From: Candidatus Chromulinivoraceae bacterium
Lineage (GTDB): Bacteria > Babelota > Babeliae > Babelales > Chromulinivoraceae
Assembly (NCBI GenBank): GCA_031972395.1
Contig: DALYET010000002.1
Coordinates: 33,561-97,560, forward strand
Direction: 5' to 3'
DNA length: 64,000 bases
The position numbers and the translations under genes are program-made. Numbering within the stretch: position 1 is the stretch's first letter; each line of letters begins with the position of its first letter. Below, in pieces: positions 34,848 through 35,651 of this stretch. The notes beneath the pieces were generated by a model, which was not told where the DNA came from, did no database searches, and worked only from the letters and a program-made list of their open reading frames with translations.

Positions 34848-35651
34848 ATGAATTTTAAAAAAATATTTGGGTTCTTTTTAATACTCAGCACAATTTCAAC
34901 AATTCAATCAAGCATTCGCCAGCCCATGTTAAACACTCTTGATGACTACAAAATGGCTTATAATGAAAACGACCCTAGTTTTTCTGACCCATTTCTTGAT
35001 TCAAGAAGCCTAGAAATTATTTTTCCTATTCACCACGCTGCAATGAATACCAATGATCCAAGAGTTTTAAGATTATTGCTAGACAAAGGTGCAAATATTA
35101 ATAAAAGATCAGAATCTGGAAAAACTCCTTTATTTTACGCTCTAAAATATAACCCTAATACTGAAATTGCACTTTTTTTACTAGAAAATGGTGCTAACCC
35201 AAATGCATTAGATAATTTTGGCGTCAATGCTTTTGCATTTGTTGACCAAAATGAAGTTTCCAGATCAGACAGAGACAAAGAACAACTTACAAGAAGAATG
35301 TTACATCATGTACTTAATGATCCAAATGCAATTTCTGCGGTCAACAATACTGCAACGGCACCTGAACCTGTTATTCAAAGACAAATTTTAACCGATGAAG
35401 ATGTGTGTGGCGTATGTTTAAGCTCAATAAAAGAATTAACAGATTCTGGGGTCCAAATCTATAAAACTGACTGCTGTAAGCAATTTTTATGCAAAGACTG
35501 CACTGATGCAATGATAAATTCTCATCGATCTATTTCATGTCCTTTTTGCAGAAGACAGCCATTAAACGTTAATCCTTTATACATAACCGTGAATCCAGAA
35601 ACTCAGGCATTTGAAGCAGAAACAGTCTCTTTAACATTAAGAATTCAGTAA
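34848..35651 (+). CDS. exported ankyrin-repeat protein with a C-terminal RING-like zinc finger
   Basis: Signal peptide MNFKKIFGFFLILSTISTIQS. ANK repeats (PIHHAAMNTNDPRVLRLLLDKGANIN; GKTPLFYALKYNPNTEIALFLLENGANPN). Eight Cys in a C-x2-C-x18-C-C-x4-C-x2-C-x12-C-x2-C pattern at residues 187-234. Confidence 0.8.
   Translation: MNFKKIFGFFLILSTISTIQSSIRQPMLNTLDDYKMAYNENDPSFSDPFLDSRSLEIIFPIHHAAMNTNDPRVLRLLLDKGANINKRSESGKTPLFYALKYNPNTEIALFLLENGANPNALDNFGVNAFAFVDQNEVSRSDRDKEQLTRRMLHHVLNDPNAISAVNNTATAPEPVIQRQILTDEDVCGVCLSSIKELTDSGVQIYKTDCCKQFLCKDCTDAMINSHRSISCPFCRRQPLNVNPLYITVNPETQAFEAETVSLTLRIQ

Follow-up and report, generated by a model that had tools for sequence, protein, structure and literature searches.

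A predicted all-cysteine RING finger in a leader-bearing ankyrin-repeat protein of a Babeliales bacterium

The protein considered here, which we call ANK-RING, is encoded in a window of 64,000 nucleotides (the whole stretch of DNA that was analysed, from contig DALYET010000002.1) belonging to a metagenome-assembled genome (MAG) of the Babeliales (Dependentiae/TM6), an obligate protist-associated lineage. The coding sequence is complete and runs on the forward strand, as do its parts, its upstream region and the two tandem genes described below, from an ATG at 34848 to 35651, giving 267 residues plus a stop codon. We hypothesise that the protein is a secreted effector that acts as a single-chain RING-type E3 ubiquitin ligase in the protist host, and on the evidence of sequence and structure prediction we give this reading a probability of roughly 0.6. 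An initial annotation, made from the sequence alone, had put forward a host-directed E3 as a candidate; the computational tests described here support it in that capacity, and the lineage fits. Retranslation gave a protein identical to the one then described, which is present in the list of open reading frames with ATG starts, and the identical protein is also annotated on the NCBI MAG GCA_031973595.1 and found on two Logan contigs.

The cysteine finger and its likeness to RING E3 ligases

The finger spans residues 179–237 (35382–35558) and carries eight cysteines, C187, C190, C209, C210, C215, C218, C231 and C234, which are the only ones in the whole protein. They follow the pattern C-x2-C-x18-CC-x4-C-x2-C-x12-C-x2-C between nucleotides 35406 and 35549, and both pattern and coordinates are exactly those originally annotated. 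Cysteine makes up 1.3% of the residues in the window's open reading frames of at least 100 residues; the probability of at least eight in a given 48-residue stretch is about 2e-7, with about 0.005 such stretches expected over all of these reading frames. In a six-frame translation of the window, this finger is the sole RING-type pattern.

Profile searches point to the RING family. The best Pfam match outside the ankyrin families is zf-RING_2, whose full profile length is covered, with E=2.7e-4 when the whole protein is scanned and E=1.2e-5 (25.9 bits) when the domain is scanned alone; zf-C3HC4_3 and zf-RING_5 come next. For the target alone the zf-RING_2 score ranges from 21.6 to 25.9 bits against a curated cut-off of 27.3, and this is why the records of the exact protein list Ank families only. 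Because these precomputed Pfam calls name nothing else, the RING has been missed by standard annotation. An alignment of 30 related domains (A3), which is the source of the family profile and of the family residue counts given below, was compared with all PDB sequences. The top match was RNF4 (E=1e-7, 34.8 bits, a single RING), and further matches included TRIM32, TRIM21, RCHY1, RING1B, TRIM25, CNOT4, BRCA1 and Cbl, among others. There were 138 matches at E≤0.1, and the best 60 of the 138 are almost all named RING E3 ligases. The zf-RING_2 profile itself is matched by 27 of the 30 family domains, at best with E=4.3e-9.

A Foldseek search with the full-length AlphaFold 2 (AF2) model was dominated by the ankyrin repeats, the best matches being tankyrase ARC domains and DARPins, and was uninformative for the finger, which was therefore modelled on its own. 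The domain model has a pLDDT (predicted local distance difference test score) of 81.9, with strands at 29–32 and 38–40 and a helix at 41–49 in domain numbering. Its best 50 Foldseek matches in the PDB are all RING or U-box domains, headed by the RING of RNF4 (2xeu; E=7e-4, template modelling score 0.71, root-mean-square deviation 2.0 A over 64 columns). In the BFVD library of viral structures nearly all the named matches are RING proteins, none of them close.

Six full-length homologues were obtained, with 98, 55, 49, 43, 47 and 43% identity. The eight cysteines, V189, Y205-K206-T207, Q212-F213-L214, P232, R235 and L239 are invariant in all seven sequences. On these grounds it is very probable that residues 179–237 adopt a RING fold. 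The initial annotation had staked this idea on a RING or U-box profile match, a structural match and conservation of the cysteines. The last two were found outright; the first came from the family profile, with the single sequence falling just short of the zf-RING_2 cut-off. None of these computational results spoke against a RING, and the idea is supported.

Several related folds and families were tried and set aside. For a U-box, the eight cysteines are present and invariant, no U-box family occurs among the Pfam matches up to E=10, and U-box structures appear only as lower-ranked fold neighbours in Foldseek. PHD, FYVE, B-box, MYND and zinc-ribbon domains give marginal Pfam matches (E=0.23 or worse) and are missing from the fold matches. 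Prokaryotic RING finger family 4 (Prok-RING_4, PF14447) reaches 9.9 bits (E=0.95) against a 27-bit cut-off, while the same 78-residue domain matches zf-RING_2 with E=2.1e-5. The plant XB3/XBAT RING (PF24921, RING_XB3-XBAT31) reaches 7.3 bits (E=6.9) against a cut-off of 50 bits, and is weakly matched by four of six orthologues (best E=0.0098); here the architecture is analogous only.

The canonical RING spacing is C-x2-C-x(9-39)-C-x(1-3)-H-x(2-3)-C-x2-C-x(4-48)-C-x2-C. Ligands 1-2, 5-6 and 7-8 of the finger, together with both loops, match it, and the finger is a spacing variant at ligands 3 and 4, not a case of a missing ligand. Aligned with RNF4 and c-Cbl (for the latter, hhalign E=1.7e-7 with the family profile), C210 falls on ligand 3 and Q212 in the His slot of ligand 4, with C209 as an extra residue just upstream. 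Aligned by hhalign with CNOT4 (E=9e-6), C210 takes the place of ligand 4, and in both proteins ligand 5 follows after four residues. Position 212 varies over the 30-member family (Q, H, K, N, A, G and others) and the CC pair is invariant. The simplest reading of the sequences is that C209 and C210 together would act as ligands 3 and 4 in zinc site 2, giving a C4C4 RING with adjacent ligands. The alignment with the C4C4 RING of CNOT4 makes the label 'C4C4-like', proposed at the outset, a reasonable one.

CNOT4 (NOT4; PDB 1e4u, 1ur6, 5aie) is a monomeric E3 that uses UbcH5B. Like ANK-RING it has eight Cys ligands, no His, and four residues between ligands 4 and 5, and it matches the family profile with E=3.5e-5 to 1.3e-3. 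It differs in that its ligands 3 and 4 form C-x-C, whereas those of ANK-RING are adjacent, and in being a eukaryotic nuclear or cytosolic protein without ANK repeats or a signal peptide. The CNOT4-type Pfam family, zf-RING_4 (PF14570), has the membership pattern C-x2-C-x13-C-x-C-x4-C-x2-C-x11-C-x2-C. It is weakly matched by seven of the 30 family domains (best 4.1e-5), but gives no match to the target up to E=10, and the ligand 3-4 spacing differs. The target thus resembles a CNOT4-type RING without being a member.

The residues through which a RING acts on its E2 are also retained. In the complexes of c-Cbl with UbcH7, and of RNF4 and BIRC7 with UbcH5~ubiquitin, four positions are key. Three of them contact the E2: an aliphatic residue that precedes ligand 2, a hydrophobic one in the central helix, and a Pro after ligand 7. 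The fourth, a 'linchpin' Arg or Lys after ligand 8, primes the E2~ubiquitin conjugate. We take the corresponding residues here to be V189, M222, P232 and R235, a mapping with which the alignments to RNF4 and c-Cbl agree. Orthologues keep V189, P232 and R235 without exception, and each has M or I at residue 222. All 30 family domains have the eight Cys, the Pro, and an I, V or L just before the second Cys; the Arg is kept in at least 90%, and the residue four past ligand 6 is aliphatic (I, L, M or V) in 26.

RNF4 and c-Cbl, with their RING-HC domains (PDB 2xeu, 4ap4, 2k4d), give the best matches in sequence and fold. They have the C-x-[IV]-C motif and the position of the linchpin Arg in common with ANK-RING, and the C-P-x-C-R ending is identical to the CPFCR of c-Cbl. 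They differ in that their ligand 4 is His, where ANK-RING has Q212 in that slot and the extra, invariant C209, and in their partner domains (SUMO-interacting motifs in RNF4, a TKB domain in Cbl). In inactive RINGs the E2-contact hydrophobic residue or the linchpin is typically missing, or both are, and for this reason a catalytic RING E3 role is the best-supported reading of the sequence. On this reading ANK-RING would work in the manner of a monomeric or dimeric RING E3 such as Cbl, RNF4 or CNOT4.

The leader and the ankyrin domain

Residues 1–21 (34848–34910; MNFKKIFGFFLILSTISTIQS, followed by a Ser) have the layout of a Sec-type signal peptide. The n-region is MNFKK, with a charge of +2, and the h-region is the 14-residue hydrophobic stretch IFGFFLILSTISTI. 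By inspection the c-region is I-Q-S/S (the slash marking the predicted cut), with an aliphatic residue at -3 and a small one at -1; in the alignment the orthologue leaders end in PTIQA at the cut. In the AF2 full-length model, residues 1–26 are disordered. Mean pairwise identity among orthologues over residues 1–21 is 63%, near the level of the folded domains. From inspection and orthologue conservation we read this segment as a Sec/signal peptidase I-type leader, which would be cleaved from the mature protein.

The leaders are stereotyped among orthologues and paralogues, following M-x-F/L-K-K-I/L-F/L-F-S-F-L/M-L. They occur in the window genes starting at 34848, 35769 and 36385, and in the retrieved proteins P0002–P0006, P0122–P0124, P0127 and P0153. 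An identity of 63% is unusually high for signal peptides, and may reflect simple paralogy or a constraint from a specific export step.

The ankyrin-repeat domain follows at residues of about 30–156 (34935–35315), as judged by Pfam, PDB matches, AF2 and Foldseek. Two canonical repeats occupy residues 59–125 (35022–35222), with capping helices on both sides. Over these residues five Pfam families (Ank, Ank_2, Ank_3, Ank_4 and Ank_5) each pass the curated cut-off and delimit two repeat units, for example Ank with 49.1 bits (cut-off 21.1), Ank_2 with 44.8 (27.3) and Ank_4 with 50.3 (22.7); E-values in the Ank families are about 1e-13 to 1e-9. Sequence matches of the region in the PDB are to ankyrin and DARPin entries, and AF2 places helices from 31–39 through 141–156 with pLDDT 84–92. 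With at least two repeats above the Pfam cut-offs, the domain belongs to the ankyrin-repeat family, and its fold is confirmed. Of the features named for this part of the protein in the initial annotation, the two ANK repeats are borne out by the five Pfam families, and the putative Sec-like leader has an n/h/c layout that can be read in the sequence and is kept in orthologues.

The ankyrin domain is joined to the finger by a flexible linker, residues 157–178 (35316–35381), with pLDDT below 50 over residues 156–176 and a length that varies among homologues. After the finger, the protein ends in a β-strand tail, residues 238–267 (35559–35648), which opens with a conserved P-L-x-V-x-P motif and has AF2 strands at 239–248, 255–259 and 264–266 (pLDDT about 80). 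Mean pairwise identity among orthologues is highest in the ANK core (59–125, 68%), followed by the leader (1–21, 63%), the RING (179–237, 56%) and the N-cap (22–58, 46%), and is lower in the C-cap (126–156, 33%), the linker (157–178, 31%) and the tail (238–267, 31%), so that the linker is among the least conserved parts.

A possible action in the host, and the alternatives

We infer signal-peptide cleavage, host delivery, zinc binding, ligase activity and the presence of a substrate in the following scheme. The leader would direct the pre-protein, still unfolded, through SecYEG, with cleavage by signal peptidase I after Ser21. The mature protein, of about 27 kDa, would then exit the cell, for which components of a type II secretion system (T2SS) or outer-membrane vesicles are candidate routes. 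In the reducing host cytosol the eight cysteines would bind two Zn2+ in a cross-brace, with C187, C190, C215 and C218 forming site 1, and C209, C210, C231 and C234 forming site 2. The RING surface of V189, M222 and P232, with the linchpin R235, could then bind host E2~ubiquitin and prime its discharge, while the two-repeat ANK module, on its flexible 20-residue linker, would hold a host substrate for ubiquitin.

Related organisms provide a setting for such a scheme. Babela massiliensis and Chromulinavorax destructans are of the same phylum and order, and their Sec-leader ANK proteins have been read as host effectors. In Babela, signal peptides are present in 79 of 126 ANK proteins, which have been interpreted as secreted into the host, and a single RING-finger protein (COG5574) was pointed out as a possible E3 (PMC4378268). 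Chromulinavorax destructans has signal peptides in 44% of its coding sequences and in 78% of its 98 ANK proteins, and outer-membrane vesicles were observed (PMC6561590). The core of TM6 genomes includes T2SS components, with gspD present in two copies (PMC4776705). The papers on the two organisms (PMC4378268, PMC6561590) describe no ANK-RING fusion, CC ligand variant or syntenic locus of the kind reported here. The route to the host had been marked as open from the start, which is a fair remark; it holds, though, for the phylum in general, and a Sec leader is the published norm among ANK proteins of the Dependentiae (PMC4378268, PMC6561590).

Several points weigh against an E3 ligase acting in the host. 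The single target sequence lies below the gathering score of every Pfam RING family, and the alignment behind the AF2 models is shallow, at 6–7 sequences. With no residue between ligands 3 and 4 (x0), x4 after them and no His, this part of the finger lies outside the canonical C-x(1-3)-H-x(2-3)-C, and no solved RING with adjacent ligands was identified in this analysis. A Sec leader delivers to the periplasm only, where the eight cysteines could oxidise. Release outside the cell is the usual fate of T2SS substrates, and we know of no mechanism for crossing a host vacuolar membrane.

The protein might instead never enter the host cytosol, remaining periplasmic, at the surface or extracellular, with four disulfides in a Cys-rich knot and an ANK domain that binds a bacterial or extracellular partner. 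A classical Sec leader targets the periplasm, no T3SS or T4SS signal (type III or type IV secretion system) is apparent, and all eight cysteines lie in an exported protein, where disulfides are common; periplasmic self-protection ankyrin proteins are moreover cited in PMC6561590 (its reference 30). However, a disulfide knot is not expected to conserve E2-contact positions, and the spacing, V189, the CP-x-CR ending and the predicted fold are specific to RING E3s. Relatives also join the same finger to MYND or RBR (IBR) modules, which are cytosolic and of eukaryote type. We regard an envelope or extracellular role as unlikely. It is improbable, too, that the RING is present in the host but serves for binding, either as a decoy for E2s or RING partners (a pseudo-E3) that blocks or diverts host ubiquitination, or as a non-catalytic subunit of a host ligase. 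The evidence presented here is one of fold and sequence, and many eukaryotic RINGs, such as BARD1, BMI1 and MDMX, are inactive alone; the best structural matches, RNF4 and RING1B, act as dimers, and the predicted β tail could dimerise. Set against this are the invariance of V189, P232 and R235 in orthologues, and of the Pro in the family, where the Arg is also kept in at least 90%.

The protein could also be an E3 for SUMO, NEDD8 or a protist-specific ubiquitin-like protein instead of ubiquitin, or a 'prokaryotic RING' working with a bacterial ubiquitin-like system. Six of the 30 family members give weak Prok-RING_4 matches (best 1.9e-6), and Babela has many SUMO-protease-like proteins (PMC4378268). 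The target itself, on the other hand, prefers zf-RING_2 over Prok-RING_4 (2.1e-5 vs 0.95), a Pfam scan of the neighbourhood found no E1, E2 or ubiquitin-like genes nearby, and SP-RINGs bind one zinc and lack this ligand set. Leader and ANK module both point to action outside the bacterial cytoplasm, and we consider this alternative very unlikely. A host-directed, catalytic RING E3 remains the reading that we favour.

Genomic setting, relatives and meaning

The window is a bacterial chromosome segment, with open reading frame sizes and order as in ribosomal-protein and rpoB/rpoC clusters; RpoC was confirmed. The nearest named homologues belong to a 'Candidatus Babeliales bacterium' MAG, to which identity is 96% for PNPase, 96% for RpoC, 93% for TrpRS, 87% for DUF502, 75% for a 312-aa ORF, 72% for PGM and 70% for a 288-aa ORF. 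ANK-RING, at about 50% against 70–96% for its neighbours, is the fastest-diverging gene of this conserved block, as would be expected of a gene at the host interface.

The gene order (TrpRS, two small ORFs, PGM, DUF502, leader-ANK genes, 312-aa ORF, PNPase, rpoC) is the same in three other genomes (L001, L002 and L006), in which the content of the leader-ANK slot differs. Across the four related genomes ANK-RING is a positional orthologue. In L001 (6457–8279) it holds two tandem ANK-RING paralogues; in L002 (7140–9141), one ANK-RING and a leader-bearing protein with a weak J-domain match; and in L006 (6001–7475), one ANK-RING and an ANK-only gene. This variable 'effector slot', between DUF502 and the 312-aa ORF/PNPase and at 34848–36831 in the window, thus carries two to three leader-bearing genes of ANK, ANK-RING or J-domain-like type. 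L002 (CAYOQO010000005.1) is titled 'uncultured Pseudomonadota bacterium', but its gene order, near-identical PNPase and flanking proteins match the Babeliales L001, and the label looks wrong.

In the window, ANK-RING is followed in the slot by a tandem paralogue at 35769–36398, which by its translation and Pfam Ank families has a leader (MLLKKIFGFVLIAFTMQSLQA, followed by a Ser) and ANK repeats without a RING. A third tandem gene at 36385–36831 has a similar leader (MMNYKKIIFTLFFSSIFYQNIQP) and one weak ANK match (Ank_4, E=9.8e-5), and is also called at the equivalent position on the MAG contig. Upstream of ANK-RING, the non-coding region 34766–34847 contains a promoter-like pair, TTGATT...TATTTT, and an AAAGG site resembling a ribosome-binding site, as read from the sequence. 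A direct repeat of about 140 nt (34766–34907 vs 35686–35828) takes in the upstream region of the two adjacent leader-ANK genes together with their start codons and the codons of their signal peptides. Its 66 non-coding nucleotides (34766–34831 vs 35686–35751) are 88% identical and the adjoining coding part 70%, and a 24-nt core, CTATTTTAAARTTAAATGGTGATT, occurs in the window at just these two sites, with 0 expected by chance. When the shared upstream motif was sought in related loci, it was present in same-species contigs only. The repeat suggests a shared promoter and 5' untranslated region retained since a tandem duplication.

Elsewhere in the window there are two genes of the export machinery, YidC at 14192–15853 (-) and Ffh (SRP54) at 23190–24578 (-). 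MurC-like (16395–17807) and MurA-like (56160–57452) genes suggest that the lineage has kept the peptidoglycan-precursor pathway at least in part. Conserved syntenic ORFs with no Pfam or NCBIfam match are the 312-aa ORF beside PNPase (36820–37758, -), a 288-aa and 125-aa pair upstream of PGM (31493–32699, +), and a 236-aa and 194-aa pair (29068–30346, -).

The finger belongs to a small and sharply defined family, which we call CC-RING. An exhaustive hidden Markov model (HMM) search with the domain profile through 1.84 billion representative proteins gave 75 matches at E≤1e-3, eight of them at E≤1e-10. Word-indexed homology searches with the C-terminal 92 residues and with the 30-domain alignment had returned nothing usable; since the exhaustive search found 75 relatives, we take this null result to reflect a limit of the index for short Cys-rich queries, not an absence. 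Among 38 retrieved proteins (the 75 matches plus close homologues), 39 CC-type fingers share one signature, C-x-[IVL]-C ... T-x-CC-[KN]-x-[FL]-x-C-x2-C ... CP-x-CR, and most of these proteins have a hydrophobic, signal-like N-terminus. Members of the wider family placed so far come from the four syntenic Babeliales-type genomes and some ANK-rich bacterial contigs. We found no paper describing the family in the literature searched.

Two members have composite architectures. P0126 (544 aa) starts with a leader and a CC-RING, continues with several ANK repeats and a second CC-RING, and ends in a MYND finger; in P0132 (496 aa) the leader is followed by a degenerate CC-RING-like finger and by an RBR-type RING1-IBR-IBR module. 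Behind signal-like leaders, the CC finger has therefore been shuffled among other ubiquitin or adaptor domains of eukaryote type. A further CC-RING protein, P0148, is leaderless and lies on an ORFan-rich contig (L009) that also carries Vint (Hint-like), RNase III, glycosyltransferase and ClpP genes. Whether this contig comes from a giant virus, a eukaryote or a bacterium could bear on the origin of the CC-RING.

RING-type effectors have already been described in protist-associated bacteria (PMC4378268, PMC4209131), one of them active in vitro (PMC12591485), and the general idea that intracellular bacteria mimic RING and U-box E3s is well established. The active example is SneRING (SNE_A12920) of Simkania negevensis, reported in 2025 as a true zinc RING with atypical ligands that works with UbcH5b and UBE2T (PMC12591485). 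Like ANK-RING, it is an atypical-ligand RING of an obligate intracellular bacterium, in that case one growing in amoebae, and it too was found by profile and by AlphaFold and structure comparison. By its published description it differs in having an N-terminal RING followed by an unknown α/β domain, with no ANK repeats; its ligand set has N-x2-C and a His at ligand 5 (PMC12591485). It also has Ser19 in place of the E2-contact hydrophobic residue, where ANK-RING keeps V189, and it comes from the Chlamydiota, not the Dependentiae. Other bacterial mimics, namely NleG, the U-box-type LubX, GobX and RavN, AvrPtoB, and the leucine-rich repeat and RING/U-box NEX1b proteins of Neochlamydia (PMC5819833, PMC4209131), likewise join an E2-binding domain of RING/U-box fold to an interaction module and are directed at host ubiquitin. 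They are mostly zinc-free, U-box-like folds delivered by T3SS or T4SS, whereas ANK-RING keeps all eight ligand positions and has a predicted cleavable Sec-type leader.

The arrangement of an N-terminal ANK substrate module and a C-terminal RING is also known from plant XB3/XBAT proteins, Mind bomb and mimivirus ANK-RING proteins, and a Mimivirus ankyrin repeat protein is among the BFVD fold matches of the RING. These differ in having C3HC4 ligands, no signal peptide and a much larger size, and we see no evidence of direct descent from eukaryotic or giant-virus ANK-RING E3s. What sets ANK-RING apart from known systems is the combination of all-Cys ligands with a CC pair, a retained E2-contact residue, the ANK fusion and a Sec-type leader. 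It is an unannotated variant in a phylum where such effectors were anticipated.

A tentative and rather doubtful extension is that the invariant 'T-x-CC-[KN]-x-[FL]-x-C ... CP-x-CR' finger marks a distinct, unannotated RING subclass, with adjacent cysteines as ligands 3 and 4, found mainly in protist-associated bacteria behind stereotyped Sec leaders (M-x-F-K-K-I/L-F...) and together with ANK, MYND or RBR modules. If this were true, a whole class of zinc-dependent E3s would enter the eukaryotic cytosol by a Sec-dependent route, using T2SS or vesicles and without a T3SS, T4SS or T6SS (type VI secretion system). Such enzymes would need to pass through the periplasm in an unfolded or oxidised state, and would gain zinc only in the host.

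The Dependentiae are widespread and almost uncultured protist parasites, with very large sets of leader-bearing ANK proteins that have no assigned biochemical function. ANK-RING would give one such ANK module an explicit and testable output, namely ubiquitination through a RING with predicted E2-activating residues. It also makes a good test case for the question of how a zinc-finger enzyme that bears just a Sec signal could pass from a Gram-negative-type cell into the eukaryotic cytosol.

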